A model generated the notes under the pieces. It was not told the DNA's origin and searched no databases. It worked only from the letters and a program-made list of their open reading frames with translations. DNA of 44,336 nt. It comes from a virus. The translations under genes were made by a program, and so were the position numbers. The stretch covers positions 1 to 44,336 of IMG/VR virus record IMGVR_UViG_3300031578_000104; one strand, given 5' to 3'. This document shows, in pieces, positions 1 to 28,310 of this stretch. Within the stretch, counting starts at the first letter, position 1; each line of letters opens with the position of its first letter.

Positions 1-127
1 ACACCTGTCATTCCGGCAACTTTTTCCTGTGTCCAGCTTTTTTTGATTCTCAGGTCCACAAGCCACCTATTGTCCATCGGTGCACCTCCTTCTGTGAATC
101 TATATCACAATTATAATGTGAAATCTG
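1..127. repeat. Terminal direct repeat, copy 1 (identical to 44210-44336); the contig closes on itself
   Basis: Read directly: acacctgtcattccggcaac...tataatgtgaaatctg is present at both window ends, 127/127 identical. Confidence 0.97.
94..121. promoter_or_regulatory. Operator-like inverted repeats in the lysis/lysogeny switch (GTGA-N7-TCAC at 94-108, TCACA-N7-TGTGA at 105-121)
   Basis: gtgaatctatatcac and tcacaattataatgtga overlap the -10 and +1 region of the leftward promoter. The half-site TATCAC recurs at 204-209 and 28258-28263. Confidence 0.5.
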
Positions 128-138
128 GGCACAGTCAA
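110..138 (-). promoter_or_regulatory. Sigma-A/sigma-70 type early leftward promoter (TTGACT-17 nt-TATAAT) for the cro-like operon
   Basis: The - strand reads TTGACT (133-138), a 17-nt spacer, then TATAAT (110-115). The AAGGAGGTG SD and the ATG of the cro-like gene (position 77, equivalent to 44286) lie downstream. Confidence 0.7.
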
Positions 139-187
139 CATAAATTTTGTGAACCTGTATAACATTTTTATTTTTGGGAAAAAACTA

Positions 188-216
188 TTTAAACGTGACG
201 TATTATCACATATAAT
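188..216 (+). promoter_or_regulatory. Candidate repressor-gene promoter (TTTAAA-17 nt-TATAAT) with an operator-like site GTGACGTATTATCAC (195-209) in the spacer
   Basis: Perfect TATAAT at 211-216 and a weak -35 at 188-193. The 15-bp site has the same GTGA-N7-TCAC architecture as 94-108. Confidence 0.5.
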
Positions 217-236: not shown

Positions 237-584
237 TTGTCTGTAACAGGGGACAGATTAAGGGTGTTGAGAAAAGAGGCTGATTTAACACAAGAAGAAT
301 TAGCCCATAGAATAGGCATAAAAAGGGATAGATATGCAAAATATGAAACCGGTGGGAGTCCTTTAGGTCAAAAATTAATTAATGATTTTGCTAATTTTTT
401 TAACGTCTCCACCGACTACCTTCTTGGCAACTCAGACGATACCGAATCCAACCAAATCGTAGATCATGAGATATTAAAAGAATTGGAAGAGGCAACGAAG
501 GAGATGTATAAAGCCATAGCTCGCTATTTAAAGATAGCTAATCACCTTAAAACAATAGAAAAACATTCATCGAAAAGGAAATAA
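237..584 (+). CDS. XRE-family HTH repressor (CI-like lysogeny repressor candidate)
   Basis: 115-aa ORF with a TTG start and GAGGTGA SD. HTH_3-type motif LRVLRKEADLTQEELAHRIGIKRDRYAKYETG. Divergent from the cro-like gene and co-oriented with the integrase. Confidence 0.8.
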   Translation: MSVTGDRLRVLRKEADLTQEELAHRIGIKRDRYAKYETGGSPLGQKLINDFANFFNVSTDYLLGNSDDTESNQIVDHEILKELEEATKEMYKAIARYLKIANHLKTIEKHSSKRK

Positions 585-687
585 GTCCCAATAGATTTTA
601 GGAAAATTCTGACTTTTAATTATGTAACATTTTACCTACAATGGTATTACCGCCTAGTGGCGGAATATCGTGTAGGGGGGAAGCAAA

Positions 688-849
688 GTGTTAAAGTGCG
701 TTTGTATCAGCGAAGAGTTGGCGGTGGAGTGCTTTTGCAATGGCGGAATACTTCTCATAAATGCGTCCCTGTCTAATAAAAAGATTCTGGAGATAATAGA
801 GAGTCACCTTGACTTGAAGCAGGATAACCATCTGAATAGCGAAAAATAA
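688..849 (+). CDS. Hypothetical small protein (53 aa)
   Basis: Read manually: GTG start at 688 after a G-rich SD-like gtaggggggaag, stop TAA at 847-849. Below the ORF-track cutoff; no recognisable domain. Confidence 0.3.
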   Translation: MLKCVCISEELAVECFCNGGILLINASLSNKKILEIIESHLDLKQDNHLNSEK

Positions 850-937
850 CACAAGGTCGGTTTGGAGCTACCGCCGACTTAAATAAAACCCTCCCGCCCG
901 ATCATGTCTCCAGGGCGTTAGGCGTGAGACATAAAGG

Positions 938-974
938 GAACCTCACAGAAAAGCTCTGTGGGGTTCTTTGTTTT
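938..974 (+). terminator. Rho-independent terminator
   Basis: 11-bp stem gaacctcacag/ctgtggggttc (one G.U, valid only on the + strand RNA), 7-nt loop, then tttgtttt. Confidence 0.7.
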
Positions 975-1000
975 AATAAATAACTACAAGGAGGTATTAC

Positions 1001-1300
1001 GTGGAAGATAAATCTAAAGGAAATATTAAGCTTACAGATGGGGCAAAGATATTTATCACATCTCTTGTCTTTATTTTTGTTGGCTGCGTAATTATTATCG
1101 TATATTCGCTTATTCCGTATGAGCCAAAACCACAGCCCAGTAGCGGTAGCCCCGCTGTACATTATGAATACAAAACATTGACAGTTGATTATGAAGGAAA
1201 ATGTGATTTTTCCGAAATGCTGGATGATAAATGGCAGTTGACTGGTATTCAAATAAAAGAAAATGAGACAAATTTTAAATTCAGGAAAAACACTAATTGA
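1001..1300 (+). CDS. Membrane-anchored protein of the lysogeny module (superinfection-exclusion candidate)
   Basis: 99-aa ORF with a GTG start and AAGGAGG SD. One N-terminal TM helix (IFITSLVFIFVGCVIIIVYSLI). Lies between repressor and integrase. Confidence 0.6.
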   Translation: MEDKSKGNIKLTDGAKIFITSLVFIFVGCVIIIVYSLIPYEPKPQPSSGSPAVHYEYKTLTVDYEGKCDFSEMLDDKWQLTGIQIKENETNFKFRKNTN

Positions 1301-1309
1301 GGTGAACAT

Positions 1310-2464
1310 ATGAGAGGCCACATACGCCCAGGTAAAAGTAAAAATTCATGGGAAATTATTTATGACGCTCCACGGGAGCAGGGCCAGGAGCGCAAACAGA
1401 AAAGCGTTACCTTTAAAGGCAAACATTCGGACGCAGAAAAGAAACTCCGGGAAATTCTGCGCCAGATTGACCAGGGAGCGTATGTAGACAATGAAAAAAT
1501 CACCGTTAAGCACTTCCTGTCAAAATGGCTGAAAGAATACTGCAAGCCTACCCTCACCCAAACCACCTATGACAGCTATGCTATTGTGGCAGGAAAACAC
1601 CTTACCCCGGCCCTTGGGAAGCACATTTTAAATAAGCTGAAGCCACTTCATCTGCAATCCTATTATACAAAGGCTCTGGAGAGTGGCCGCTTAGACGGCA
1701 AAGGGGGCCTGTCTGCAAAGACCGTCCACTCGCACCACAGAATCATACACAAGGCCCTGGAAACTGCCGTCAAATGGCAGCTTATAGGCCGTAACATTGC
1801 CGATGCAGTGGATCCCCCAAGGCTTGAACAATATGAGGCCAATGTTTACGGAGAAGAAGAAGTCGGTAAACTTCTCAAGGCTGCGGAAGGTACACGCCTT
1901 TACGTACCCATACTGCTGACCATTGGGACAGGCTTGCGCCGGGGGGAGGTTTTGGGGCTTCGCTGGAAGGATGTTAATCATGAAAATAAAACAATAGCGG
2001 TCAACCAATCCCTATTATCAACAACAGAAGGACTTCAGTTTAAGTCTCCCAAAAACAAAAAAAGCCGGAGACTCATAACCGTGCCGGCTTCTGTGTTTGA
2101 CGAATTAATTAAACATAAAAAGGTTGCACAAAATAAGGATAGACTTGCCTGTGGCAAAGCATATATTGACAATGATCTAGTGTTCTGCCGGGAGGATGGA
2201 TCCGCATGGCACCCCGGAACATTCAGCCACAATTACCAAGACCTTTTAACCGCAAATAATTTTCCTTCTATCCGGTTCCATGATTTGCGGCATACTCATG
2301 CCTCGCTATTATTAAGGCAGGGCGTACACCCTAAAATTGTGTCTGAGAGATTGGGACATAGTCAGATAGGTATAACCTTAGACATATACTCACACATCCT
2401 CCCAGGGATAAAGGAGCAGGTTGCTCAAGACCTGGACGAAGCCTTATTTAAAAAGGTCAAATAG
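1310..2464 (+). CDS. int: Tyrosine recombinase / phage integrase
   Basis: 384 aa. Catalytic signature GLRRGEVLGLRW (Arg), FHDLRHTHASLLL (His-x-x-Arg), LGHSQIGITLDIYSH (His...Tyr). SAM-like N-terminal domain. Adjacent to the tRNA-fragment attP. Confidence 0.95.
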   Translation: MRGHIRPGKSKNSWEIIYDAPREQGQERKQKSVTFKGKHSDAEKKLREILRQIDQGAYVDNEKITVKHFLSKWLKEYCKPTLTQTTYDSYAIVAGKHLTPALGKHILNKLKPLHLQSYYTKALESGRLDGKGGLSAKTVHSHHRIIHKALETAVKWQLIGRNIADAVDPPRLEQYEANVYGEEEVGKLLKAAEGTRLYVPILLTIGTGLRRGEVLGLRWKDVNHENKTIAVNQSLLSTTEGLQFKSPKNKKSRRLITVPASVFDELIKHKKVAQNKDRLACGKAYIDNDLVFCREDGSAWHPGTFSHNYQDLLTANNFPSIRFHDLRHTHASLLLRQGVHPKIVSERLGHSQIGITLDIYSHILPGIKEQVAQDLDEALFKKVK

Positions 2465-2600
2465 TATCCAACATATCCAACAAAATATCCAACGAAGTTT
2501 TAAAATAGAGTGAGTTAGGGTGGACTGAAGTAGAGTAAATTCTTATATAACTGAAGGGTTAAGGGTTATATTGAATTGTAGTGAAAACTGTGGCGCAGAA

Positions 2601-2655
2601 CTTAGGATCCAGTGGGAGTGATCTCGTGGAGGTTCAAGTCCTCTCGCCCGCACCA
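2601..2655 (+). other. attP core candidate: 3' portion (anticodon loop to CCA) of a tRNA-Leu(UAG) gene
   Basis: cttaggatccagtgggagtgatctcgtggaggttcaagtcctctcgcccgcacca contains the anticodon loop CTTAGGA, a long variable arm, the T-arm GGAGG-TTCAAGT-CCTCT, the acceptor 3' strand and ACCA. No matching 5' acceptor strand (gcgggcg) or 5' anticodon-stem half lies upstream, so it is a fragment. Confidence 0.7.
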
Positions 2656-2658
2656 AGG

Positions 2659-2688
2659 CTTTCCGGTTTCGGAGGGTCTTTTTTATTT
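2659..2688 (+). terminator. Terminator-like hairpin directly after the tRNA fragment
   Basis: ctttccg-gttt-cggaggg (two G.U pairs, + strand specific) followed by tcttttttattt. It would reconstitute a tRNA gene terminator after integration. Confidence 0.55.
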
Positions 2689-2814
2689 GGGGCCATCCAA
2701 CGAAATATCCAACATGGGGAAAATTTTCCCTCATTTATTCTTATTCTTCTTCCTATATAAATAGAACCTTTCCGATCATATCGTTGACCTCACCAACATG
2801 ATCAACCCCACCGG

Positions 2815-2843
2815 GAGAAAAAGAAAAGCCCTGCTAGGCAGGG
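2815..2843 (-). terminator. Rho-independent terminator ending the attP-proximal cassette
   Basis: The - strand reads ccctgc-cta-gcaggg followed by cttttcttttt; it overlaps the stop of the 59-aa ORF. Confidence 0.6.
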
Positions 2844-3013
2844 TCACTTCTATAGATTACGTCCTCATCATCAAATTCCGGCTTCTCGTCCTGTATCTGA
2901 AAGTCAATCACTTCCCCAACATCTTCTCCGTGCTCAGGGCTAAATTTAAACTCCACTTCAGCAATGCCCCACCTGCCATCGTCAAGCTGGCGTATGTATG
3001 TTTGACGGCTCAC
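2834..3013 (-). CDS. Small acidic hypothetical protein (59 aa)
   Basis: Read manually: the GTG start overlaps the upstream stop (GTGA coupling). Product VSRQTYIRQLDDGRWGIAEVEFKFSPEHGEDVGEVIDFQIQDEKPEFDDEDVIYRSDPA. One residue under the ORF-track cutoff. Confidence 0.5.
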   Translation of the reverse strand: MSRQTYIRQLDDGRWGIAEVEFKFSPEHGEDVGEVIDFQIQDEKPEFDDEDVIYRSDPA

Positions 3014-3477
3014 TCCCCCACCTCCACGTCTATTCCTTTGGCTTTGAGGGCGGCGTGTGCTATGTATTTAGGGGCATCCCCACAAAGCACCCTCCAATCG
3101 GTGCATAACTCAGTGCAAAATTGCCTCCATTCGCTAGAAGAAAAGGATTCTCTGGCCTTCTCCACCGCTTCCCATGCTGCGGCTATATCGGAGGAATATT
3201 TGGGCAGTTCGTCCGCAAGGTAGGATTTTGTTGGTCCTTCCCACCAATATGTCAGCGTGTTAGAGTGAGGATGTTTTGCCCACCCCACGATCTTCTCAGC
3301 CACCAACTCATTGATTTTATCCAGGTTCATTTTGGGCCTCCTTCCTAAGCATTGTTTTCCAAACACGGTTTCCCCTAATATTTTAACCGCTTCATCATCA
3401 CCAGAGATACCGAATTTTTGAGCCAGAATATTGATAAATTCGTTTTCGATTAGTTCTTTGGTGGCTTGTTCGTTCAA
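3010..3477 (-). CDS. Phage ABA-sandwich-domain-like protein
   Basis: 155 aa. The segment LDKINELVAEKIVGW...LPKYSSDIAAAWEAVEKA matches my recollection of the Phage_ABA_S family signature (not searched). Confidence 0.55.
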   Translation of the reverse strand: MNEQATKELIENEFINILAQKFGISGDDEAVKILGETVFGKQCLGRRPKMNLDKINELVAEKIVGWAKHPHSNTLTYWWEGPTKSYLADELPKYSSDIAAAWEAVEKARESFSSSEWRQFCTELCTDWRVLCGDAPKYIAHAALKAKGIDVEVGE

Positions 3478-3905
3478 GGTTTTTCCTCCTTCCTGCTCTC
3501 AATAAACCTGCGCCGCTCTGCCTCATATTTCCTGTTCACGCTTGCCTTGGTTAAATCCTTGGCCTCAACACCCCGGCCGCAATGGGGGCAGCAGGGAAGC
3601 ATGTCGCCGCCCCGGTAAGTCTTTTCCAGTTCCCTGACAGCTAGAAGGTGAGGCTTCCAGTTTAATAATTCTCTGCGCTGATTCAGAAGGCTCTGCGCTT
3701 CTTTATTGAGTTTATTCATATCATAGGCTAAATCTTTCATTGCTTCGTATGGATCAACAACCGACCCGCATTCAGTACAAAGTATTTCTCTGTTCTGGGT
3801 GTCAACTTCAAAGCGCCTATTTCTACATGTGCATTTCTTATTTTTGTCGTGGGTAATACGGAGTGCCGTAATGGGGATTATGTTGTCAGGTAGTTTTTCG
3901 TCCAC
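3474..3905 (-). CDS. Zinc-ribbon / coiled-coil hypothetical protein
   Basis: 143 aa. CxC...CxxC (CTCRN...CTEC) and CCPHC motifs flank a helical, charged middle. 4-nt overlap with the next gene. Confidence 0.6.
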   Translation of the reverse strand: MDEKLPDNIIPITALRITHDKNKKCTCRNRRFEVDTQNREILCTECGSVVDPYEAMKDLAYDMNKLNKEAQSLLNQRRELLNWKPHLLAVRELEKTYRGGDMLPCCPHCGRGVEAKDLTKASVNRKYEAERRRFIESRKEEKP

Positions 3906-4062
3906 TGCTTTTTTCCTCCTTCCTGCGGTCCCTCCGCAACTTCTCCAATGCCGCTTGCTTCAGCCATGTGCTGACGGACATTTTAGACGATGCCGCCGCC
4001 TTCTGGATTTTTTCTTTTAATTCATCGTCTGGATACAGGTATAGGCGTGGTTGGTTTGGCAT
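3886..4062 (-). CDS. Ribbon-helix-helix (CopG/Arc-like) DNA-binding protein
   Basis: Internal ATG at 4062 with a GGAGGAAAAAGGA SD. MPNQPRLYLYPDDELKEKIQKAAASSKMSVSTWLKQAALEKL fits a beta-strand plus two helices RHH pattern. Confidence 0.55.
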   Translation of the reverse strand: MPNQPRLYLYPDDELKEKIQKAAASSKMSVSTWLKQAALEKLRRDRRKEEKSSGRKTT

Positions 4063-4082
4063 GATTATATCCTTTTTCCTCC

Positions 4083-4325
4083 TTATATGCGTTTCAATAT
4101 CTCTAAATACATAGCAGTTAATGAAGCAAGTAACACACAAAGCATAAAGATTGCAAAAACCCAGGGTATAAACTTATTTTTTATGTCGTGATACTTTTTG
4201 TATTTACGATCAAGATTCCATTCCCATTCCTTGATTTTGTCGCCAGCAAAAGATACAAAAAATACAATTCCAATCAATCCAGCCATGCCACCTATTAAAA
4301 TCAAAAATGATACTATATACTTCAC
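4083..4325 (-). CDS. Two-TM small membrane protein (paralog of 19962-20204)
   Basis: 80 aa with AGGAGG SD. Two hydrophobic helices flank the charged loop DKIKEWEWNLDRKYKKYHDIKNK. About 52% identical, ungapped, to the 80-aa product of 19962-20204. Confidence 0.8.
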   Translation of the reverse strand: MKYIVSFLILIGGMAGLIGIVFFVSFAGDKIKEWEWNLDRKYKKYHDIKNKFIPWVFAIFMLCVLLASLTAMYLEILKRI

Positions 4326-4360
4326 ATCTAAAACCTCCTTTATTAATTACTAATATTATA

Positions 4361-4390
4361 ATTATACACCCCCTTTACACCCACAGTCAA
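4361..4390 (-). promoter_or_regulatory. Near-consensus sigma-A promoter (TTGACT-18 nt-TATAAT) driving the attP-proximal cassette
   Basis: The - strand reads ttgact gtgggtgtaaagggggtg tataat tataat. It sits immediately after the terminator at 4394-4423 and about 35 nt before the SD of the 4325 gene. Confidence 0.7.
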
Positions 4391-4393
4391 CCC

Positions 4394-4423
4394 AAAAGAA
4401 AAACCCCAGCCGAAGCCGGGGGG
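4394..4423 (-). terminator. Rho-independent terminator (UUCG tetraloop)
   Basis: The - strand reads ccccggc-ttcg-gctgggg (a G.U pair here; an A-C mismatch on the + strand) followed by tttttctttt. Confidence 0.75.
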
Positions 4424-4597
4424 TAAAATAATTTTCATAAATGAAGGAATTTTTAGAAAACAATAGAAATATAAATTTACTCGTTTGAGCATTGCTAGGA
4501 GCAATCACCTTTACCTTTCTTGAGAGTACGAACATTGCAGCCTATGGCAAGGGGTTAATTAATGTTTCCGTACCCCTGGAAGGGAGGTGAAAAGGCT

Positions 4598-4744
4598 ATG
4601 ACGGTTTTTGTCGTGCTCTCCGTTCCGCAAACCAAATGCGGTAGCAACCCTGCCCTACCAGACTGCAACTATTGCGTCTATGGGCGAGGCTGCCAGGAAG
4701 CCCAAAAAGCAAAAACCCTCAGAGTGTCGGCTCTGAAGGCATAG
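4598..4744 (+). CDS. Candidate small Cys-rich peptide (48 aa)
   Basis: ATG 4598 lies 8 nt after GGGAGGTGA. Product MTVFVVLSVPQTKCGSNPALPDCNYCVYGRGCQEAQKAKTLRVSALKA. Opposite strand to all neighbours; no homology recognisable. Confidence 0.3.
   Translation: MTVFVVLSVPQTKCGSNPALPDCNYCVYGRGCQEAQKAKTLRVSALKA
4704..4739 (-). terminator. Rho-independent terminator
   Basis: The - strand reads ccttcagag-ccgaca-ctctgaggg (9 bp with one G.U; mismatch on the + strand) followed by tttttgcttttt. Confidence 0.7.
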
Positions 4745-4825
4745 GCTTGGGCGAGTTAGGCAGGGGCGCTATATGCGTCCTTGTCTATTTATTTATAGTA
4801 TATACTGTATTGACGTCAAAATACC

Positions 4826-4854
4826 TTTATTTGTTTTTGAATTACATATATAAT
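4826..4854 (+). promoter_or_regulatory. Candidate promoter (weak -35 TTTATT, perfect -10 TATAAT) in an AT-rich palindrome-rich segment
   Basis: TATAAT at 4849-4854. Upstream perfect palindromes AGTATATACT (4797-4806) and TTGACGTCAA (4810-4819). Confidence 0.3.
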
Positions 4855-4860
4855 ATGTGT

Positions 4861-4941
4861 GACAGGCATTTGCGCAGACGACCGCTCAGGGTATTAAACT
4901 GAGCCACCGGCCCTCACCGAAAGGTGGGGGTTGGTTCGTTT
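4861..4941 (+). ncRNA. Candidate ~80-nt small RNA (two hairpins, terminator-like 3' end)
   Basis: Hairpin gctcag/ctgagc (4884-4904). GAAA-tetraloop hairpin ccctcacc/ggtggggg (4911-4930; a G.U pair makes it + strand specific) followed by ttggttcgttt. No ORF with an SD. Confidence 0.25.
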
Positions 4942-4993
4942 ATGAGCACCCCCTATATTCTTTGTCAATAAAGGGTTTGAAGCTATTTTAGGG

Positions 4994-5020
4994 GACAAAA
5001 ACAGGCAAAATGAGCTTGCC
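4994..5020 (-). terminator. Weak terminator after the small membrane ORF
   Basis: The - strand reads ggcaa-gctcatt-ttgcc followed by tgtttttg. Confidence 0.4.
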
Positions 5021-5199
5021 TATTTCCCTATCACTGAGGGCACCTTCTTCATGCCCAGGCTGCCGGAAATTGCCCAAAAGACATTCTGTAGCAGAACGGG
5101 AATCTCCTGGCTGGTAGCGAACATATAACAGATAGTCCCCGTCACAATCAAAAAGCCGCCCACCAGGGCAGCGTCCACCATGTCAAATTTCTTTTCCAA
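5020..5199 (-). CDS. Small two-TM membrane protein (holin-like candidate, 59 aa)
   Basis: Read manually: TTG start 9 nt after AAGGAGG. Product LEKKFDMVDAALVGGFLIVTGTICYMFATSQEIPVLLQNVFWAISGSLGMKKVPSVIGK. Located downstream of the endolysin. Confidence 0.5.
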   Translation of the reverse strand: MEKKFDMVDAALVGGFLIVTGTICYMFATSQEIPVLLQNVFWAISGSLGMKKVPSVIGK

Positions 5200-5431
5200 T
5201 TTCTTGCGCCTCCTTAAATTTATTTTTACTGGGTACTCTTTACCCTCAAGGGGATCACCCCCCTATCAAATGAACCCCGTAGTCTTCCCCAGCGGCCCCC
5301 GGCACACCCGGGGGTCCTTCTCCTCCTTAAAAATACCAAACATATAGAGTATTGCCATCCTGCATAAACCATGCAGTATTGCTACCAATGTGTTCAACGC
5401 TTAATATTTCCACACCCACACCCCCGGCTAT

Positions 5432-5623
5432 TTACTCAAGTCCATAGGTGCATCCCACAAACGAGCACCACTTATCCCCTCGCTTATTGCCTAGCAGCTT
5501 GGCTCCACACTTAGGACAATACTCATTAATCCAATCACCGATTAACAAATCATCGAAACATGTCTTACTCGGCCCTACTGCCATTTCCAACACCTCCAAA
5601 ATAATTTCAATCACATGGGACAC
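5432..5623 (-). CDS. Small zinc-ribbon protein
   Basis: 63 aa with CPKCG...CSFVGC motifs; directly follows the endolysin gene. Confidence 0.6.
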   Translation of the reverse strand: MSHVIEIILEVLEMAVGPSKTCFDDLLIGDWINEYCPKCGAKLLGNKRGDKWCSFVGCTYGLE

Positions 5624-5626
5624 CCC

Positions 5627-6367
5627 TTAAACCATTTCTGGGGCCAGGAGGCCTCCAGCATTTTTAATGACCTGGCGAAGCCTACGGTTTTCCTCCGCCA
5701 CCTTCTGGGTTTCCCTGCTAATCTTTAAGAGTCCAGCCACAACAAAAGCCTTATTTGCTGGCTCCTCCGGCTTATGTTCACCCGCCTGAATCAACCCGGC
5801 CTGTTCCGCTACCTGCATAACCTCAATCTCCCATTGTTCCGGCACTGTTTTTTCCTCCTTCGTTGGTTCGTAAAAAATAAAATAGTTGAGTGATTGCTGC
5901 CTGAAAATGTCATAGCTTGCCTTGGTCCTCGTTTCCGAATTTGGATCGTTGACAAGGATCTGATCGCCACCCTCCGACAACCCCCACAGTAGGATGTAAT
6001 GACCTATTGTGGTGAAATATCCAGGCCCCATGCTTGCCACGACCAGAGCACCCTTTTTAAGGGCCTCAATGGCTTCGTTGGTCAAACTGGTCTGTTTAAA
6101 TTCCAGACCATACTTTTTCGCCGCAAAATCAAAGAATCCCCAGGCAACACCATTATTGTAGGTGCGATAAAAGTTATCCACGATCACCGTGGCCACATCG
6201 GGAGGCTTTATGTTCTGGTCCAGAAATGTGGCCAGCACCATTGCGAAGGATGCAGCTCCGCAGCCTGAAGTTGCAATCGTTTGTTTGGGGTCCCCGTGAC
6301 TGCTAAATGTTATGTATCCCCATCGGGTATCGTATTGGAGATAGTGAATAGGTTTGGTTGTCCGCAT
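5627..6367 (-). CDS. Endolysin candidate: peptidase C39-like cysteine peptidase domain protein
   Basis: ATG 6367 with a GGGGGTGA SD. Motifs TSGCGAASFAMVL (Cys) and GHYILLWG (His) are typical of Peptidase_C39_2-type cell wall hydrolases. Lies next to the XhlA-like gene. Confidence 0.65.
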   Translation of the reverse strand: MRTTKPIHYLQYDTRWGYITFSSHGDPKQTIATSGCGAASFAMVLATFLDQNIKPPDVATVIVDNFYRTYNNGVAWGFFDFAAKKYGLEFKQTSLTNEAIEALKKGALVVASMGPGYFTTIGHYILLWGLSEGGDQILVNDPNSETRTKASYDIFRQQSLNYFIFYEPTKEEKTVPEQWEIEVMQVAEQAGLIQAGEHKPEEPANKAFVVAGLLKISRETQKVAEENRRLRQVIKNAGGLLAPEMV

Positions 6368-6371
6368 CGAA

Positions 6372-6575
6372 TCACCCCCTTCTCTCAAGCAGGTTAGCCA
6401 CCAAAAGCAAAAGGGACAAAATACTTGTCCCCATTAGGCCCATGAACCAATATTGAAACCTGTCCAGTTTTTTTTCCATCCTAACTGCCCCTTCCTGTAA
6501 GCTTTTAATTTCGGTTTCAGTTCTAGTCAGCCTTTCCCGAACTTCAATCTCAGTCAATGTTCCACCCCCTGGCAA
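6372..6575 (-). CDS. XhlA-like lysis membrane protein
   Basis: 67 aa. N-terminal coiled coil (LTEIEVRERLTRTETEIKSLQE) plus a C-terminal TM helix (FMGLMGTSILSLLLLVANLL), the architecture of haemolysin XhlA family lysis proteins. Confidence 0.6.
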   Translation of the reverse strand: MPGGGTLTEIEVRERLTRTETEIKSLQEGAVRMEKKLDRFQYWFMGLMGTSILSLLLLVANLLERRG

Positions 6576-6749
6576 AATTTCTGCCCGACCCTAAGACTTT
6601 TTTCTCATTTCCGAAGTGTCAACTTTTCATTGCCCTTTTTACAGGCTTTTGTGATATTCTGATTATGCAGGTATGGGTGGTGACTCACCCACCCCGTTAG
6701 GGCCACCCCCGGCGGGGGCCTGCTGCCGCAAAAAGGAGAGATTGTAACT

Positions 6750-6916
6750 TGAAATACTTCTTTGGACTTATTGTCTTTTCCGCTGCAATCGGATTCATAT
6801 TCCCACCATGGAACAACTTTTTAGACTCCGCATGGCTTACCTTTTGGCTCGTAGTTGTCCCGGCAGCCGCATCATTTGTTTGGTGGTATGAGAGAAAAGA
6901 GCAAAGAAAAAATTAG
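6750..6916 (+). pseudogene. Frameshifted small 2-TM ORF on the opposite strand
   Basis: GGAGAG SD plus TTG 6750 opens a frame that stops after 24 codons. The -1 frame continues with AAIGFIFPPWNNFLDSAWLTFWLVVVPAAASFVWWYERKEQRKN. One extra T in the T4 run at 6777-6780 would give an intact 56-aa membrane protein. Confidence 0.3.
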
Positions 6917-9900
6917 CGCAGGATAATTCCAGAAGCCTTATCGCTGCGCTGTAGTTGATTCTTTTTCTCCGTATTTAGCTTCAGTTGTGACTTTGGCTTT
7001 TCTTCCACAACAAAACCCTTCCGCTTTAACCCATCGTAAACCTTCATTTGTGCCTCCACCGGCTGGTCTACGATGCTTGCCAGCGCTACGGTTTTTAACT
7101 GCATTTCGCGTAACTTGGCCTTTTTCTCAGCCGCACCCATGCCCGACTTTTCGATTTCCCTCATAACTATTCGATTGTCACCAATCAAATCAGCCACCTT
7201 ACCGTACAGCTTCCGCATTCTCTCGTCCTGGGTTTCCAAAGTACTGCCGGTCTGTTTTATGTCGGCCCTCATGGTGTCGAGTTCTTTCTTTCGCTCATAG
7301 AACTTTTGGGTCACATCTTGACTGTAGGCCGGGTCTGCGGTAAACATACGAGCAAGCGCATCCTTAAGAGAGCCTTCGGATGTTGCCGGAATGCCAACCT
7401 GGCCGATAATTCCCAGATAAGAGCTTGCAATATAATCAATCTGTTTTGGAGACACGTTGAACCTTTGCCCAATGGCCTTGGATATTTTACTTGTCTTTTC
7501 ATCATACTGCTGGCCCGGACTCATGTTTTCCATATAGCCCGGTACAATCGGCCTTCTGGCGAAGTCTTTGTTCGCCGGAATATCAGTGATTAACGGACTT
7601 GCAATGTTATCCGTCAATGGGTTAGGGGGTAAGAAGCTGGCTTTCACCGTATCCGCGAACTTATAAAAAGCATCAGGATCATGCTCTTTAAACTGCCTCA
7701 GTGTCCTTTCAACCAACGCACCAAATATTACCCCGCCCTCTCTTGGTTTTGGCAGCTTCAAGAATGTGCCATTTGGCAATGGAACGCAGAAGTTTGTGTC
7801 CTTTACCCAGTTGCTTAGTTTTTGGTAATTAGGATTGTCGTGGTTCATGGCATACAGGGCTAAAGTGGGCATGGTCACAGCGGCAAAGGTTTTGGTAATT
7901 GCCGCAAGGGGCCTATCCTTGTATGTGCGCCCAAACTTATCTATGCCCTGAATGGCCGCTCCGAAATAGGGTACAAAAGCATCCAGGAAATTTGATATTT
8001 CGGCCGATCTTGTTTTAGAGAAGTTAACCGTTATGTCCTTACTTTCAAACAGTGCCTTGCTCCTGGTCGCGTAGGTATCGCCCTCCTGCCGCAGAATGCG
8101 CCGGTATTCTCCCAGCCTTGGCAGGGTTTCTGTCACATCTGCCAGACGCTCCAGCCATGTAAACGGCACGTTTAAGATCCTCCGGGTATATTCCACCGGG
8201 TTTTTAATGTTACTTAAATCGTAATAACCAGGTGTCAATTTTGCCTTGGTAGTACGCAACAGGTTAACGTCAGCACTGACGGCGGTAGCATGACCACCGC
8301 CCATAGCCCTGTAGGACTTTGCCGCAGCCCTATTGCCGACAATATCAACCAATGCTCCGACAATGTCCCCGGCCCACGTCATAGGGTTATTGGTCGATTT
8401 TGACGCTACATAAGACATTGGCAGGTCGCGAACAATATTGCGCCCTAGGCTAAATATTGGGTTGATGCCTGTGGTCAACAGTTTCATTTTACTCGTAATA
8501 GAACGGGCACCCTCAACTACCATGTTCTGCGCTGGCGTTGAAAGATTGGTTAATGCCTCCAGTAATGGCAGATCGTTAATCCGCACATTTACCCTCTCAC
8601 CATTTACCCTGGCAGCAACGATATTCTTCATATTGAGGTTGGTGGTCTTAGGGTCAACCAGTTCACCAAATACCTTCATGCCGTCCGGGTCTTGGCGCAT
8701 CATCGAAATAAGTCGCTGAGCAACCTCGTTGCGCTTTGCTGCTTTGATGTAGGCCGGTACCCGTTCGATAAGAGTTTCCAGAGACTCAATAGTTTTGCGT
8801 TCTGATCCCTGTGCGCTCTTAATCGGGTTGGGTTGGTCTACAAAAGAACTCCGGGCACCCGTGGCACTGGTAACGCCCATTTCAACATCGTCTAAAAGAC
8901 GCTGCAAGGGAATATAGTCCTGATACTGCTGCCTCATGGCCTGCCATTGTGCTTTTGAGATCATGCCAGTATCAACAGCCCACTTTTCACCAAAGTCCTT
9001 GATCCATTTAGTGTAATCCTGTGCTGCCTGGGCCATCCACGGATGAGTACGGTCGTATTGTGCAACCTTTTTACTGGCCAGAATTTCATTCATGTTTAGA
9101 GCTTTAGGGTAGACCTCCAGGCCCTGTGTTTCCCATGATTTGAAATGCTTCAGCTTTAGGTAGTCCTCAAACTTGCGCCATTCACCTTTTGGCACCTTTT
9201 TAACTATCTCCATTAATGGTGCGCCGACAACGTTACCCTGAGAATCAACCATACCCTTAGTTAAAACGTGTTCTGCTATAGTTTCAGAGTTGCTGGCATT
9301 ATGGGCAAGAATAAAAGTTCGCTCGTTGTCAGGTAGGTTTCTGCCAATGTTTTTCGAGTACAACTTGTCAACGTCATTTAATCTGTTGCGGCCATCCACC
9401 GTCTTATAATAGAGAGTCTTTATTTTGTTAGCCACATTAACTGGGGCAAACCTCTGCAACAATGGTTCCCTGTCGGCTTTTGCCGTGATTGTCTCAATGG
9501 TGTCCGGTAGCTTCAGGCTTGCCGGGCTGATGCCGGGAGGTAAAGGTCGGGAACTTTTTATCTGGTCCCCAATATCCATACCAGTATCAAAAGCATCCTT
9601 CTCGGCCTTTCTTGACGCTCCGCTTCTCATTAGTTTAGACAGTCCTGCTTTTACCCCCATAAAAGCCAGTTCCCCGCCTGCGCCTACCCCGGCCCCAACA
9701 GCGGTCCGTTTTGCAACTTCCGCTGAAGTATCACCTTCATTAATTCCCCGAACACCTTCATAGCCGCCTACAGTTGCAGAAGCCGGTAAAATTTTAGTGA
9801 GCAAACCTCTACTTGCCGGCAATGCCTCTTTGACAAGAGATATGCCCCTGCCAATAGGAAGGGCCGCCCCGCCCAATTCACTACCTGCAGCCAAGACTTT

Positions 9901-10293
9901 TTCCGACAAGGTTTCAGGCTGAGTTGGAACAAAGGGTTGAAATCTGCCACCGGTTAATTTGGAGATACCACGTTCTAAACCGCCACCCTTGCCCAAGAAG
10001 CCAGCCGATACACCTTTAAGGGCATTGTCAAGGTTAATGTCCACGGCACGGGAAAGCTGTTGCGGTATAGACCGCACCGGTGGGGCACTGGTCGGCTCCA
10101 CGGATTCAAAAACGCCCTGCTTGACCAATGCGTTAGCGTCTAGCGTGGGGCGTTTTATGACCGGGGCAGGTGCCGGAGCAGAGGGAGGTTTCTTTAGCTG
10201 ACCTCTTGCCTTTTCTCCAAGACTATCATAGCTAAGCGATCCCTCATTTACTTTTTGCTGTAAATGCTGCTGTGCCCATTTAGGTATCGCCAT
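6913..10293 (-). CDS. Large virion-associated protein (internal/ejection-protein candidate)
   Basis: 1126-aa ORF, last gene of the structural block. Gly/Ala-rich hydrophobic segments (AVGAGVGAGGELAFMGV), a long helical C-terminus, no catalytic motif recognised. Confidence 0.5.
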   Translation of the reverse strand: MAIPKWAQQHLQQKVNEGSLSYDSLGEKARGQLKKPPSAPAPAPVIKRPTLDANALVKQGVFESVEPTSAPPVRSIPQQLSRAVDINLDNALKGVSAGFLGKGGGLERGISKLTGGRFQPFVPTQPETLSEKVLAAGSELGGAALPIGRGISLVKEALPASRGLLTKILPASATVGGYEGVRGINEGDTSAEVAKRTAVGAGVGAGGELAFMGVKAGLSKLMRSGASRKAEKDAFDTGMDIGDQIKSSRPLPPGISPASLKLPDTIETITAKADREPLLQRFAPVNVANKIKTLYYKTVDGRNRLNDVDKLYSKNIGRNLPDNERTFILAHNASNSETIAEHVLTKGMVDSQGNVVGAPLMEIVKKVPKGEWRKFEDYLKLKHFKSWETQGLEVYPKALNMNEILASKKVAQYDRTHPWMAQAAQDYTKWIKDFGEKWAVDTGMISKAQWQAMRQQYQDYIPLQRLLDDVEMGVTSATGARSSFVDQPNPIKSAQGSERKTIESLETLIERVPAYIKAAKRNEVAQRLISMMRQDPDGMKVFGELVDPKTTNLNMKNIVAARVNGERVNVRINDLPLLEALTNLSTPAQNMVVEGARSITSKMKLLTTGINPIFSLGRNIVRDLPMSYVASKSTNNPMTWAGDIVGALVDIVGNRAAAKSYRAMGGGHATAVSADVNLLRTTKAKLTPGYYDLSNIKNPVEYTRRILNVPFTWLERLADVTETLPRLGEYRRILRQEGDTYATRSKALFESKDITVNFSKTRSAEISNFLDAFVPYFGAAIQGIDKFGRTYKDRPLAAITKTFAAVTMPTLALYAMNHDNPNYQKLSNWVKDTNFCVPLPNGTFLKLPKPREGGVIFGALVERTLRQFKEHDPDAFYKFADTVKASFLPPNPLTDNIASPLITDIPANKDFARRPIVPGYMENMSPGQQYDEKTSKISKAIGQRFNVSPKQIDYIASSYLGIIGQVGIPATSEGSLKDALARMFTADPAYSQDVTQKFYERKKELDTMRADIKQTGSTLETQDERMRKLYGKVADLIGDNRIVMREIEKSGMGAAEKKAKLREMQLKTVALASIVDQPVEAQMKVYDGLKRKGFVVEEKPKSQLKLNTEKKNQLQRSDKASGIILR

Positions 10294-24929: not shown

Positions 24930-26435
24930 TTAACTCCACCCTCCCTTAAAAAATCCCTCCGTCACCGTCGCGCTGTCGGCTCGGGGTTTGGGTTTTTCGC
25001 ACTCGAAGTTATAGTGTTCTGGTTCCGGTGCTGGGTGCTTAGTTGGTATTGTCTTCATCCTTATAGCCAACCCTGTCACTCCATCCGGCGCATCGTCGTG
25101 TTTATTCTTGCCAATCTTTACGTATGAGGTCAAGGCCCTCATAAACTTATCGTAGTCGCTGCCAGGTTCGTAATCTGACCGGAAATAGAAATACTCCTTT
25201 ACATACCCGGCATTCATTAGGATTCGCGTTTCTTTGTTGGTTGTTTCATGTTGGTCAATAACTGAGCATTTCCATTTTGGTTTAACCAGCTTACGAACAT
25301 TACGGGCATAGCTGCTTCCACCGTTATTGGCCTCAATGATCTCTATATCTTCCTTGGCATCGATAATCTTCTGCGCTACAAGCGGTTCGGTAACCTCAAC
25401 GCCGTCCTGGGTAAATACCACATCGGTTATGTAGGTGTAATCACCGTATCTTTTGCCTGTGACTGAACAAAGGTAATCGTCCCCCCGGTCTGCCGTATCG
25501 GTAAACCCTATAATACCGTCCGGCCTCTTTGTGGCCAAGTCTGCCATTGTAAAGCGGTTTAGCTGTTCAACGGGATAGAGTAAGCCCTTGGCCTCTATGG
25601 GGTTCTGCATGTACTCAGCTTCCCAGATAAAGTCCTCGGTCACTCGCTTAATGGACATATATTCAGCCGTTGTCTTTATTGCAGGGCAGAAGGTTTTGCC
25701 ATATTGGTCAAGGGCCGGTATCTTTATGACTGTAAACTCGTCGCTAAAATACTCGCTTGCCTCGTCTGCAAGCCGTCCTATGGGATCGTTTCTGCTCCAC
25801 CTGGTGGCAATGTGGATCTCCGGACATCCACTCTCAAACCGGCTCAGGTGTGTTGATGTGTACCAAAGCCACACGTTTTTTATGACTGTCTCGGACATGG
25901 CCTCTTCAATGTTTTTTATCGGATCGTCAAGTATGCCGGCCAGGTCGCAGCCTTTACCTGTTATTGGCCCACCCACGCCAGCACAAAAATAAGCGCTCCT
26001 TTTTGATGTTTCAAGCGCCCAATCTTCAATGGCTTTCCGGTCTGATTTTAGCTTTATCTTCGGGAATACCCTCAGATATTTGTCACTCTGCACCATCTGC
26101 CGTATATCATAGCTAAATGTGTGCGCCAGGTCTGCGGCGTAACTGTTTCTCATTATCGCGCCGACCGGATTCTTACCAAACATCCAGGCACACCACAAAG
26201 ATGTTTCATACGACTTGCCGGCCCGGGGCGGTTCTGAAATGGCTAGTTTTAGTATTTGCTTATCTGTTACACCCTGAAACGCTTCAGCAATTTCTTGAAG
26301 ATGTGGCTTATCATCTGAAAAAAACAACGGGTCCATATACCTACAAAAAAAATAGAAGTTGTTTATTAGTTTATCAATCCGATCCTCTTCAAGCAGCCTT
26401 AAAAGTTCAGTTTCCTCTTTTGGCGATAAGCTCAT
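24930..26435 (-). CDS. terL: Terminase large subunit
   Basis: 501 aa. Walker A PPRAGKSY, ATPase plus nuclease-domain length, follows TerS with a 29-nt overlap. Confidence 0.9.
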   Translation of the reverse strand: MSLSPKEETELLRLLEEDRIDKLINNFYFFCRYMDPLFFSDDKPHLQEIAEAFQGVTDKQILKLAISEPPRAGKSYETSLWCAWMFGKNPVGAIMRNSYAADLAHTFSYDIRQMVQSDKYLRVFPKIKLKSDRKAIEDWALETSKRSAYFCAGVGGPITGKGCDLAGILDDPIKNIEEAMSETVIKNVWLWYTSTHLSRFESGCPEIHIATRWSRNDPIGRLADEASEYFSDEFTVIKIPALDQYGKTFCPAIKTTAEYMSIKRVTEDFIWEAEYMQNPIEAKGLLYPVEQLNRFTMADLATKRPDGIIGFTDTADRGDDYLCSVTGKRYGDYTYITDVVFTQDGVEVTEPLVAQKIIDAKEDIEIIEANNGGSSYARNVRKLVKPKWKCSVIDQHETTNKETRILMNAGYVKEYFYFRSDYEPGSDYDKFMRALTSYVKIGKNKHDDAPDGVTGLAIRMKTIPTKHPAPEPEHYNFECEKPKPRADSATVTEGFFKGGWS

Positions 26436-26994
26436 TTATTCTCGCCTGCCGTTCTTCGGGGGTTAATGTGGCGGTTTCTATCGGCCCCCCGTCCTTGCCG
26501 GTAAGCTCCACCTTGTCCGTAAACATGCCCAGGTGCTTGCCTATCAACTCCAGGGCCTTCAGGGAGTCATGGCGTTTGATTTTAAGGCCATCCTTTGTTT
26601 CTGACACCTCCGCAAGCAGGGTACCGTCAACTTCATCGCTGGGCCTTATTTTGACCGCGCTATACTCCTTTATTAACTTAATAGTATTGCCTTCCTCGTC
26701 CTCTCCAATATCACGCTCAACCCTGGCATTTTCGAAGGCCACAAAATCCTTAATGTCGCCAAAGGCTATCTTGGCCAGCTGCTGGAGGACTTTATCGGAT
26801 GTTATTTCGGTTCGTTTTTCCCTTTTTTGTTGGGCCTCTCCTATTGCAGCCTGGATGTTAGGTTTTCTTAGGTTTTCATGGCCTATTATCTCGGCTGTCT
26901 TTTCCGAGTACCCAGCCCTCCTGGCAGCTGCAGTTGCATTCAGATCTACCAGGTACTCCAGCACAAACATTTTCTGTTTTCCCGTTAGACCCAC
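26407..26994 (-). CDS. terS: Terminase small subunit (Terminase_2 family)
   Basis: 195 aa. GLTGKQKMFVLEYLVDLNATAAARRAGYSEKTA is the family signature. GTG start with a GGAGGG SD. Confidence 0.9.
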   Translation of the reverse strand: MGLTGKQKMFVLEYLVDLNATAAARRAGYSEKTAEIIGHENLRKPNIQAAIGEAQQKREKRTEITSDKVLQQLAKIAFGDIKDFVAFENARVERDIGEDEEGNTIKLIKEYSAVKIRPSDEVDGTLLAEVSETKDGLKIKRHDSLKALELIGKHLGMFTDKVELTGKDGGPIETATLTPEERQARINELIAKRGN

Positions 26995-27032
26995 GCCGCA
27001 TCCCTCCGTTTAAAAATAATTTGATTTATGTG

Positions 27033-27087
27033 TTGACAACGCCAACCATACATAGTACATTATATACAAGAGGTTGGCAACGCCAAC
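27033..27087. promoter_or_regulatory. Back-to-back overlapping promoters plus two copies of the inverted-repeat motif TTGRCAACGCCAA
   Basis: + strand: TTGACA (27033-38), 17 nt, TACATT (27056-61). - strand: TTGGCG (27081-86), 16 nt, TATAAT (27059-64). Motif copies at 27033-27046 and 27074-87; the second is the palindrome TTGGC-AAC-GCCAA. Confidence 0.5.
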
Positions 27088-27127
27088 ATATACCTGGCCC
27101 CCAGGGTGAAGGGGAAGGAGATTGAAC

Positions 27128-27403
27128 ATGACTAAAGAGTATACCATCTATAACCGCTACGATGGCGAGAGCAAGGAACTCACCGAAGCTGAAGCCATAG
27201 CTATCACTAAAGCAGCCGACTTACATACCGGGCCTTATGGCGGTATGGGCAGCCAGATTGACATGACGCTGTGCCGGTACGATGAAGCCAACGACACTTA
27301 TGTCATCGAAGCTGTACACCACCGGGGCGAATGGCTTGCAATCCCCGAGAGCCAGTCTGCGTTTATGGAGCATGAGTTAGGTCAGAATGCCCAGGGGGAG
27401 TAG
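27128..27403 (+). CDS. Hypothetical protein
   Basis: ATG 27128 lies 6 nt after GGAGA; 91 aa; the opposite strand to the packaging genes. Confidence 0.55.
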   Translation: MTKEYTIYNRYDGESKELTEAEAIAITKAADLHTGPYGGMGSQIDMTLCRYDEANDTYVIEAVHHRGEWLAIPESQSAFMEHELGQNAQGE

Positions 27404-27441
27404 TTCCCCCGCTCTGCGGTTATAAAGAGGCCGCCGAGATT

Positions 27442-27585
27442 ATGGGGGTATCACACAAGGCCTTGGCCGTGTATATCAAGCGCGGTTGGCCGGGTGGCAA
27501 ACATTTTCCTGAGCCGGTCCAGAGATTAGCAAGTGGGCCGGTATGGAGGAAAAGCGATATAGAAAAATTTAAAGAATCTATCTAA
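27442..27585 (+). CDS. HTH_17 (excisionase/MerR-like) DNA-binding domain, N-terminally truncated as called
   Basis: MGVSHKALAVYIKRGWPGGKHFPEPVQRLASGPVWRKSDIEKFKESI. The frame is open upstream to 27376 and there encodes YKEAAEI (helix 1) but has no start codon. Confidence 0.45.
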   Translation: MGVSHKALAVYIKRGWPGGKHFPEPVQRLASGPVWRKSDIEKFKESI

Positions 27586-27610
27586 CCTCCCCCCGGGAGG
27601 TTTTTCTTTT
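27586..27610 (+). terminator. Rho-independent terminator
   Basis: cctccc-ccc-gggagg followed by tttttctttt. Confidence 0.75.
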
Positions 27611-27663
27611 TATCAAGTACCCGTCAAGTAAAAATCAAAAAAGCAACAATACCTGTAAGGTAC

Positions 27664-27702
27664 TGGTCTCTGTTATAGTGGTCTCTGTTAATGGTATCTG
27701 TT
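27664..27702. repeat. Iteron set A: TGGTCTCTGTTA x2 plus TGGTATCTGTT
   Basis: Copies start at 27664, 27679 and 27692. Confidence 0.8.
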
Positions 27703-27710
27703 CGTATACT

Positions 27711-27782
27711 AAATCTAGTATAGGTGGGTATATCAAATCTAGTATAGGTCATCCCCTAACCTATATCATTTTTAGTATAGGT
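27711..27782. repeat. Iteron set B: AAATCTAGTATAGGT x2 plus TTTTTAGTATAGGT, with an inverted partial copy ACCTATA
   Basis: TAGTATAGGT at 27716, 27740 and 27773; the inverted acctat at 27759-27764. The last copy overlaps the stop of the wHTH gene. Confidence 0.8.
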
Positions 27783-28099
27783 CAATAGTGGGGTTCTTTG
27801 CGCCACTCGGCAAAATCCAGCATGTAATACTCGCTTGGTTTACCTGGCCTCTTGCTGATTTGAATTAAGCCTTTTGCCTCCAGCTGGTCAACGTGTTTTA
27901 GCACCGTGACCCTGCTTAATCCCCTGCAGTCCTCCGCTATCCTGTCTATGGATGGGTAGCAGGTCAAGTCCTCCTTATCAGCCCTGGACAGGAGCATAAT
28001 GTATATTAACAGGTCTATTGAGTCTATTTCCCGGCTACCTTTATCCCTCAGCCAGGTGAGGTAAAAGGCATTTATGGGGAGTATATTGTCTTGTCGCAT
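27782..28099 (-). CDS. Winged-helix DNA-binding protein (replication-initiator/HTH_36-like)
   Basis: 105 aa. CYPSIDRIAEDCRGLSRVTVLKHVDQLEAKGLI is a typical wHTH (MarR/DnaD-N-like) segment. Confidence 0.6.
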   Translation of the reverse strand: MRQDNILPINAFYLTWLRDKGSREIDSIDLLIYIMLLSRADKEDLTCYPSIDRIAEDCRGLSRVTVLKHVDQLEAKGLIQISKRPGKPSEYYMLDFAEWRKEPHY

Positions 28100-28245
28100 A
28101 TCACCACGCTCCTGTGGTATTTGCTCCCTAAATGTTTAAGACGGGTGCCAATGGAGCTATTGGCCAGGCTGCAGACCTGTTTTACCCGCCAAAATAAAAA
28201 TCAGCCACCGGCTGAAATATTTTCAAAATTATTTACAAAAAGGTG

Positions 28246-28274
28246 TTGACAGGGTGGTATCACCGTGATATATT
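28246..28274 (+). promoter_or_regulatory. Strong promoter (TTGACA-17 nt-TATATT) with the perfect palindrome TATCAC-C-GTGATA in the spacer
   Basis: TTGACA 28246-51, TATATT 28269-74, palindrome 28258-28270. Confidence 0.7.
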
Positions 28275-28310
28275 GTGTATAAGGAAAAGTCATGAAGGGA
28301 GCAAATACAA

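Follow-up and report, generated by a model that had tools for sequence, protein, structure and literature searches.

A cargo-swapping accessory operon with a proposed ribbon-helix-helix autoregulator beside attP of a temperate Bacillota phage

Introduction

Phage accessory regions that resemble the locus reported here include those covered by the lambdoid 'moron' concept and, in siphophages of low-GC Gram-positive bacteria, the slot for lysogenic conversion that lies between the lysin gene and the attachment site. In the immI region of phage P22, the ribbon-helix-helix (RHH) repressors Arc and Mnt control the promoter Pant. Autoregulated accessory operons have also been described among anti-CRISPR (acr) loci. 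In those of Listeria phages, the N-terminal domain of AcrIIA1 binds a palindrome in the promoter and brings about autorepression, and the prophage acr operon is expressed on infection as well as from the prophage (10.1101/787200). The anti-CRISPR-associated (Aca) regulator Aca14 is an RHH protein, with an inverted repeat that overlaps the -10 element (10.64898/2026.07.27.740549). Here we describe a cassette of five minus-strand genes, g1 to g5, in the IMG/VR virus record IMGVR_UViG_3300031578_000104, the whole stretch of which (44,336 nucleotides, nt) is referred to as the window.

A sequence-only reading of the window had proposed that the cassette is an independently promoted unit between the lysis genes and attP, in a moron or hotspot position of the kind that houses lysogen-expressed defence or conversion functions, and that it is a candidate for an undescribed accessory module with the RHH protein as autoregulator. 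The cassette has its own promoter upstream and its own terminator downstream and lies between conserved phage modules, and its cargo differs among close relatives between conserved flanks. We suggest that the operon occupies a slot in which genes are exchanged behind a constant regulatory frame.

Results

Relatives of the locus were gathered via the closest g3 and g5 homologues together with the shared conserved left flank. A 19-mer taken from that flank recovered only two related loci, L048 (with its duplicate L049) and L052, and five further metagenome matches were unrelated. A common frame was found in seven further lineages, consisting of lysis genes, a terminator, a strong promoter, the cassette, a second terminator and a recombinase gene, the last being seen only where the contig extends to it, as several relatives' contigs stop earlier. 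Strong promoters equivalent to that of the window are present in all seven, and hairpins of different sequence occupy the position of the upstream terminator in L040, L041, L043, L044, L045 and L048; the terminators of the relatives keep their structure and differ in sequence. On the left, L043 and L045 share about 83% identity with the window over the flank 4399-4840. On the right, the flank 2774-2845 is 96%-97% identical in L040 and L041, whose last gene differs from that of the window.

The genes held by this frame vary considerably (percentages are identities to the window's proteins). In L041, an Amidase_3 endolysin gene and a gene for 55 amino acids (aa) precede the terminator and promoter, and the cassette encodes a 118-aa protein (phrog_9662), an RHH protein, a g3 homologue (79%), an ABA-sandwich protein (49%) and YopX, followed by a terminator. 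L040 carries genes for a 65-aa protein, an RHH protein, an 80-aa protein, a g3 homologue, an ABA-sandwich protein and YopX, then a terminator and a 75-aa gene before the integrase gene. The longest series is that of L043, with a 91-aa protein, an RHH protein, a 93-aa protein, a g3 homologue (74%), proteins of 75 and 57 aa, an ABA-sandwich protein, a g5 homologue (81%) and the terminator. L044 has a ProQ_C-like gene, an RHH gene, a g3 homologue (63%) and an 82-aa gene ahead of a serine recombinase gene. In L045, an RHH gene is followed by genes for a 129-aa protein, whose C-terminal domain is 69% identical to g2, for proteins of 65 and 48 aa and for a g5 homologue (78%), and then by the integrase gene. 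The L048 cassette consists of an RHH gene (41% to g2), genes for a 239-aa protein (phrog_26990) and a 151-aa protein, and a g5 homologue (81%), again before an integrase gene. The contig of L052 stops inside its RHH gene (41% to g2).

All eight cassette variants contain an RHH gene; the genes fall into at least three sequence types, and their domain matches are all sub-threshold. The g5 family keeps its terminal position in L043, L045 and L048 (about 78%-83% identity), and g1 is missing from every relative's cassette. The tail proteins of L048 and the window are 92% identical, but in the cassette of L048 unrelated proteins of 239 and 151 aa take the place of g3 and g4. Partial sets of the window's genes occur, namely g3 and g4 in L040 and L041, g3 to g5 in L043, and g5 alone in L045 and L048. 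The complete set was found only in copies of the same phage, of which metagenome assemblies hold several (L001-L005). The expectation that the five genes would recur as a unit in other genomes therefore failed. The locus is a recombination hotspot in which the cargo is interchangeable, and the five genes do not form a conserved system. The proposed accessory slot itself, insulated and independently promoted, was borne out by the recurrence of the layout with conserved flanks and swapped cargo.

The boundaries of the window's cassette are as had been read from the sequence (Table 1). TTGACT begins 3 nt past the T-tail of the upstream terminator, and the promoter scores 11 of 12 consensus positions. 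On the minus strand, which is the coding strand here, only two sites in the whole window reach this score, the cassette promoter and the early promoter at 138..110. Downstream lie five tightly coupled open reading frames (ORFs), spanning 4325 to 2834 and provided with strong Shine-Dalgarno sequences; a 20-nt gap separates g1 from g2, g2 and g3 overlap by 20 nt, and the remaining two junctions are start/stop overlaps. The series ends at its own terminator before attP, all five genes being located as described earlier.

The claim that the cassette lies between the lysis genes and attP needs a qualification. The slot was borne out, but the endolysin gene does not directly adjoin the cassette, as two minus-strand ORFs (5432-5623 and 5020-5199), one plus-strand gene and the terminator 4740..4715 intervene. 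The hairpin of that terminator overlaps the 3' end of the plus-strand gene, which encodes a 48-aa protein, and is kept in L043 and in alignment A3. Two minus-strand terminators and the opposing small gene set the operon apart from the late and lysis genes, and late read-through as the sole route of transcription was rejected on these grounds. The 48-aa gene is itself kept in L043, L045, L048 and L052, with substitutions mostly in third codon positions, and its leader of about 170 nt (4430-4597) is more conserved than its ORF. No match to it was found in Pfam, NCBIfam or Rfam; the region could give rise to a lysogen-expressed peptide or act as a regulatory element.

Table 1. Positions of the cassette and of neighbouring features in the window
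Feature	Position	Strand	Description
Upstream terminator of the cassette	4394..4423	-	stem 4421..4404, 7 pairs (6 G-C), then TTTTTCTTTT to 4394
Cassette promoter	4361..4390	-	sigma-70/SigA type; TTGACT (4390-4385), 18-nt spacer, TATAAT (4366-4361)
Candidate operator	4365..4381	-	direct repeat GGTGTA-N5-GGTGTA, from the spacer to the start of the -10 hexamer
g1	4083-4325	-	80 aa, basic; AAGGAGG-N7-GTG start
g2	3886-4062	-	58 aa; ATG 20 nt past g1 stop; RHH protein, proposed autorepressor
g3	3474-3905	-	143 aa; GTG start; phrog_8538 member
g4	3010-3477	-	155 aa; TTGA start/stop overlap with g3; two modules
g5	2834-3013	-	59 aa; GTGA overlap with g4; last gene before attP
Cassette terminator	2815..2843	-	stem 2843..2829, then CTTTTCTTTT; stem overlaps g5 stop codon
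First terminator after the lysis region	4715..4740	-	10 pairs, then TTTTGCTTTT
48-aa Cys-rich gene	4598-4744	+	MTVFVVLSVPQTKCGSNPALPDCNYCVYGRGCQEAQKAKTLRVSALKA; divergent from the cassette, in the conserved left flank, outside the operon
Putative attP	2475..2713	+	tRNA-3'-like core and arm-type repeats, adjoining the integrase gene
Plus-strand terminator	2655-2680	+	after the tRNA-3'-like core
Tyrosine integrase gene	1310-2464	+	lysogeny module
99-aa protein gene	1001-1300	+	N-terminal transmembrane segment; between repressor and integrase genes
Helix-turn-helix (HTH) repressor gene	237-584	+	lysogeny module
Candidate immunity operators	94-209		GTGA-N7-TCAC and TCACA-N7-TGTGA, clustered
Endolysin gene	5627-6388		Peptidase_C39_2 type; lysis gene
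Holin-like gene	6372-6575		lysis gene

The promoter contains a candidate operator. Its direct repeat occurs once in the window against 0.01 expected, and a repeat of this length within a 40-nt promoter has P=0.028. In the same place, the promoter of L048 has an inverted repeat of 8+8 nt, TGTACGCA-N5-TGCGTACA (P=0.007 alone), and that of L044 has TATACAC-N7-GTGTATA (P=0.044 alone). Inverted repeats of the L044 kind are also seen in L041 (P=0.145 alone) and L045 (P=0.60 alone), where they are not significant, and the promoters of L040, L043 and L052 contain no convincing repeat, none reaching significance. As in operons of the acr-aca type, a repeat lies within the core promoter, significant on its own in the window, L048 and L044, and each cassette includes a gene for a small putative DNA-binding regulator. 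The operator-like motifs seen in the cI/Cro region are all missing from the cassette promoter. The RHH gene is not tied to any particular neighbour gene, which argues for a promoter regulator rather than an antitoxin. The earlier idea of an RHH autoregulator holds in that such a gene is found in every cassette and the window's repeat lies over the -10 element; judged from the sequence, it is plausible that g2 represses its own operon and that this control does not depend on the immunity switch.

The g2 protein matches, in every case below threshold, RHH proteins and families: NikA-like, RHH_1, the Arc-like phrog_228, MobA/RelB, and in the PDB NikA, HP0222 and PutA. Among the relatives, g2 is 41% identical to the product of the gene that opens the L048 cassette; in L045, it matches a cassette protein over the C-terminal domain of the latter (69% identity).

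The g3 protein is a member of phrog_8538 (E=1.1e-41), its residues 3-133 aligning with positions 2-131 of the 138 in the profile. It consists of an N-terminal C4 zinc ribbon of TFIIB type, a long helix and a CCPHC motif. Of 37 homologues found, 34 were aligned, and C27, C43, C46, C106, H108 and C109 are invariant. The g4 protein has two modules. Residues 58-143 match PF18066, the Phage ABA sandwich domain (32.0 bits against a cutoff of 27), and the N-terminal module (3334-3477; residues 1-46) resembles stand-alone proteins of about 50 aa (P0053 and P0108, 50-51 aa). The ABA domain (3010-3330) has its own ribosome-binding site and start, GGAAGGAGG-N6-ATG at 3330, and stand-alone ABA-sandwich proteins start at the position equivalent to Met50 of g4. 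As read from these features, the g4 ORF is an in-frame fusion or a read-through of two units that form separate genes elsewhere.

Structure-based searches, which had been recommended for the cassette proteins, yielded a relative for g4 and none in the PDB for g3. The AlphaFold2 model of g4, with a predicted local distance difference test score (pLDDT) of 88, has as its best PDB match 1R7L (probability 1.0, template modelling score 0.58), a Bacillus cereus phage protein of unknown function, and against BFVD it matched only uncharacterised phage proteins. The g3 model is mediocre (pLDDT 69.5); Foldseek against the PDB returned no E-value better than 0.66, with only a local likeness to the TFIIB zinc ribbon. 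Sequence searches of the PDB with g4, the g3 profile and the RHH profile gave nothing significant. In the literature on 'ABA sandwich', PF18066 and YopX, no functional data were found.

The g1 protein has two predicted transmembrane spans (hydrophobic residues 3-28 and 51-76), and its gene has a GC content of 31% versus 47.7% for the genome, g2 to g5 having 47%-49%. On account of this composition, g1 is probably a recent insertion behind the promoter. Profile scans, including Pfam, PHROGs, PADLOC and NCBIfam, assigned it to no family, and no homologue was found outside this phage. A role as holin was considered and rejected, as the match to Phage_holin_5_2 reached 19.1 bits against a cutoff of 29.2 and covered one transmembrane span; the place of g1, cut off from the lysis genes by a pair of terminators and a gene on the other strand, also contradicts it. 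The g5 protein is strongly acidic (pI 4.1, net charge -11), and only three sequence clusters of it are known. With g1 and g5, tblastn against GenBank phages found nothing at E≤1, and exact-peptide scans of IMG/VR with g3 and g1 alone recovered no relatives. Every match in the NCBIfam scans of the cassette proteins was far below cutoff.

Elsewhere, the cargo families keep different company. Of 29 non-redundant loci, most have the g3 homologue within an early or replication operon, and GenBank phages do likewise. In the more distant loci, it sits inside long same-strand operons in which the neighbours encode SSB, RecT, AAA_24, DnaC-like IstB, DnaB, RuvC/RecU and methylases as well as dUTPase, HNH, YopX and terminase, often with an ABA-sandwich gene close by. 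In Paenibacillus phage PG1, the g3 homologue lies among early/middle genes, ahead of sigma factor and packaging genes, and Pseudomonas phage PAJU2 has it in the last position but one of the Erf/exonuclease early operon. The ABA-sandwich family of g4 and the YopX and ProQ_C-like cargo of the relatives are likewise found in early or replication operons elsewhere. In three groundwater contigs (L009-L011; locus 300-9300), a g3 homologue stands in a run with DprA-like, ABA-sandwich, YopX and ProQ_C-like genes, downstream of FtsK_SpoIIIE and Replic_Relax-like genes and with a Tad2-like (PF11195) gene 5 kb upstream; this element may not be a typical phage.

No product had been recognised as part of a known defence system, and PADLOC-DB v2 agreed, with zero matches for g1 to g5 at E≤1 and zero for ten cargo proteins of the relatives at E≤0.01. 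No known Acr or other anti-defence gene was found in the window or the relatives with Pfam and PHROGs, dedicated anti-defence models not having been searched.

The ends of the window are identical over 127 nt (1-127 and 44210-44336). The window is therefore a circular assembly of a complete phage genome, with a unit length of 44,209 bp and most genes on the minus strand. The region next to the integrase gene is a convincing attP as judged from its sequence elements: a core at about 2585-2656, downstream of the integrase gene, resembles a tRNA 3' end, and arm-type repeats ATCCAAC(A/G)AAATATCCAAC flank it at 2475-2493 and 2695-2713. ARAGORN predicted no complete tRNA at about 2585-2656, and the tRNA-3' fragments beside the recombinase genes of the relatives differ from that of the window. 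Once the phage has integrated, its plus-strand terminator would lie behind the tRNA 3' end that it brings along. As this terminator and that of the cassette are convergent, the pair would protect the restored tRNA gene against antisense transcription.

Other parts of the genome deserve brief mention. The 99-aa protein gene lies in the classical superinfection-exclusion position between cI and int, and family scans, including NCBIfam, found no match for its product. Directly upstream of the lysis genes, 6913-10293 (minus strand) encodes a 1126-aa protein with an LPD38 'large polyvalent protein' domain, which is 92% identical in both L048 and L052. Plus-strand ORFs occupy about 26000-31600 of the otherwise minus-strand genome, with plus-strand promoter-like sites of 11/12 at 28246 and 30793, and this stretch may be a second variable region. 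Terminator-like hairpins are enriched over 26-44 kb (44 observed versus 20.7 expected). Rfam gave no credible match, either for the whole window at gathering thresholds or for 2400-5300 at E≤1, and the sole blastn match of 2400-5300 to GenBank phages was a 46-nt tRNA-like stretch.

Discussion

The source of the window is best explained as a temperate phage of Bacillota. Our preferred explanation of the cassette, to which we would give an even chance, is an accessory operon under RHH autoregulation, located in a hotspot where cargo is swapped; its genes would most likely benefit the phage on entry or induction, via host takeover or counter-defence. A near-consensus promoter of the housekeeping type would drive the five translationally coupled ORFs, and the terminator would stop the operon before attP. 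We suppose that g2 binds the GGTGTA repeats across the -10 region and represses its own promoter, such that the operon would fire in a burst when naked phage DNA enters the cell or when the prophage is induced. Lysogens would keep it running at a low set level, and its control would not depend on the cI/Cro switch. The cargo, namely the membrane protein g1, the zinc-ribbon/coiled-coil protein g3, the ABA-sandwich protein g4 and the acidic protein g5, may consist of non-essential accessory proteins that act on targets in the host or in competitors. Because early operons are the usual place of the cargo families, a role in host takeover or counter-defence is likelier than one in prophage-encoded defence; and as these families are infection-phase genes, host takeover, counter-defence or help in replication fits better than lysogen-expressed immunity.

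Several observations weigh against this explanation. Every match behind the RHH assignment of g2 is sub-threshold. The significance of the promoter repeats is modest, those of L052, L045, L040 and L043 not being significant when tested singly, and the repeat shared by L041, L044 and L045 may be common by descent. Most of the cassettes were found with g3 or g5 as the query, and the frequency of these two genes in the slot is accordingly subject to ascertainment bias. The g3 model is of mediocre quality and without a structural relative. Finally, no cargo protein belongs to a characterised anti-defence or host-takeover family, the PHROGs annotations being 'unknown function' only.

A different view, close to that of the sequence-only reading, is that the cassette is a lysogen-expressed defence, superinfection-exclusion or conversion module with a constitutive promoter and with g1 as the most plausible exclusion factor. 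The place between lysis genes and attP with its own promoter and terminator would suit such a module, as would the variable cargo, and a promoter devoid of immunity-type operator motifs could work in lysogens; with its small size, AT-rich gene and two membrane spans, g1 also has traits often seen in morons. However, no positive evidence for defence or conversion emerged. PADLOC matched neither the five proteins nor the ten from relatives, no relative has g1, and the classical cI-int exclusion slot is already filled by the membrane-protein gene at 1001-1300. The early and replication operons in which the cargo families sit elsewhere speak in the same direction, since genes of the early lytic kind, as the g3 and g4 families mostly are, would be silent in lysogens. 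We consider a module of this sort unlikely. It is similarly improbable, in our opinion, that the cassette is a block of ordinary lytic helper genes, for example of DNA metabolism or late transcription, displaced from the early region and serving efficient replication rather than conflict with host defences. The genome-typical GC content of g2 to g5, the TFIIB-type zinc ribbon of g3 and the habitual neighbours of g3 (SSB, RecT, DnaC-like, methylase, RuvC/RecU, sigma factor and terminase genes) would agree with that origin, but family and PDB searches provide no link to a known replication or transcription function, the families are patchily distributed, and the close relatives L048 and L045 are without g3 and g4 in the slot, from which it follows that both genes are dispensable or replaceable.

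Two further schemes assign a more specific role to the RHH protein. In one, the locus would be an anti-immunity region like P22 immI, where an Arc-like RHH protein controls the promoter of an antirepressor directed against the repressors of the phage itself or of other prophages. Such a scheme could draw on the weak match of g2 to the Arc-like phrog_228, on the strong promoter with its embedded repeats and on the RHH gene being the first of the cassette in L045 and L048. It was rejected, as no antirepressor gene was found: no product has an Ant, KilA-C or BRO domain in Pfam or PHROGs, and the divergent gene encodes the Cys-rich 48-aa protein without a family in place of an Mnt-like RHH protein. 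We regard it as very improbable, and we give still less credence to a type II toxin-antitoxin pair with g2 as the RHH antitoxin, g3 as the toxin and the other genes as passengers. The 20-nt overlap of g2 and g3 is what such a pair might show, together with weak RelB and MqsA-like matches, but roughly 21 of the 29 non-redundant g3 loci have no detected RHH gene upstream, in L048 and L045 the RHH relatives of g2 stand ahead of unrelated genes, and no toxin family was matched in Pfam, PADLOC or NCBIfam. With no conserved pairing of antitoxin and toxin families across genomes, the pair was rejected.

Within the preferred explanation of an autoregulated accessory operon, a more pointed version is possible but doubtful, namely that uncultivated Bacillota phages use the slot as a counter-defence island run by Aca-like RHH autorepressors, with g5, g3 and the ABA-sandwich proteins as new inhibitors of bacterial immunity. 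If so, a first function would be gained for several widespread 'hypothetical' phage families, and the frame of RHH gene and promoter could serve as bait for more counter-defence genes. The g3 family reaches Paenibacillus, Pseudomonas and cyanobacterial phages. In any case, the conserved frame offers a handle for a guilt-by-association harvest of accessory genes from uncultivated Firmicutes phages, and phrog_8538, PF18066 and YopX are thereby placed among dispensable, mobile accessory genes. Should the cargo consist of anti-defence or exclusion factors, they would be new players in the conflict between phage and host; otherwise, the locus would be an ordinary moron region.

Among described families, g4 belongs to PF18066 with 1R7L and g3 to phrog_8538, both without known function. 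In addition, g4 has an extra N-terminal module, which is a separate small gene in other genomes. The P22 immI region is alike in that an RHH repressor, proposed as such for the window, acts on a strong promoter of an accessory operon among late genes, independent of the main immunity system, and differs in its antirepressor and its second, divergent RHH gene, no homologue of the former and no counterpart of the latter being present here. The acr loci of Listeria phages share the setting of an operon of small variable genes in a temperate Firmicutes siphophage; their regulator is an HTH protein in contrast to the RHH protein of the window, in which no acr homologue was detected. Aca14 is alike in layout, with an RHH regulator within an operon of small accessory genes and an operator, putative in the window, over the -10 element; it stems from Proteobacteria (Pasteurella), and its repeat is inverted, whereas that of the window is direct. 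The layout itself is a familiar kind of phage add-on slot. Like morons, the cassette has its own promoter and terminator, is inserted between conserved modules beside the attachment site, differs in presence and cargo from phage to phage and contains one gene of deviant composition, here g1. Unlike morons, four of its five genes are genome-typical in composition, its cargo families are usually those of early operons rather than conversion genes, and the slot always includes a dedicated RHH regulator.

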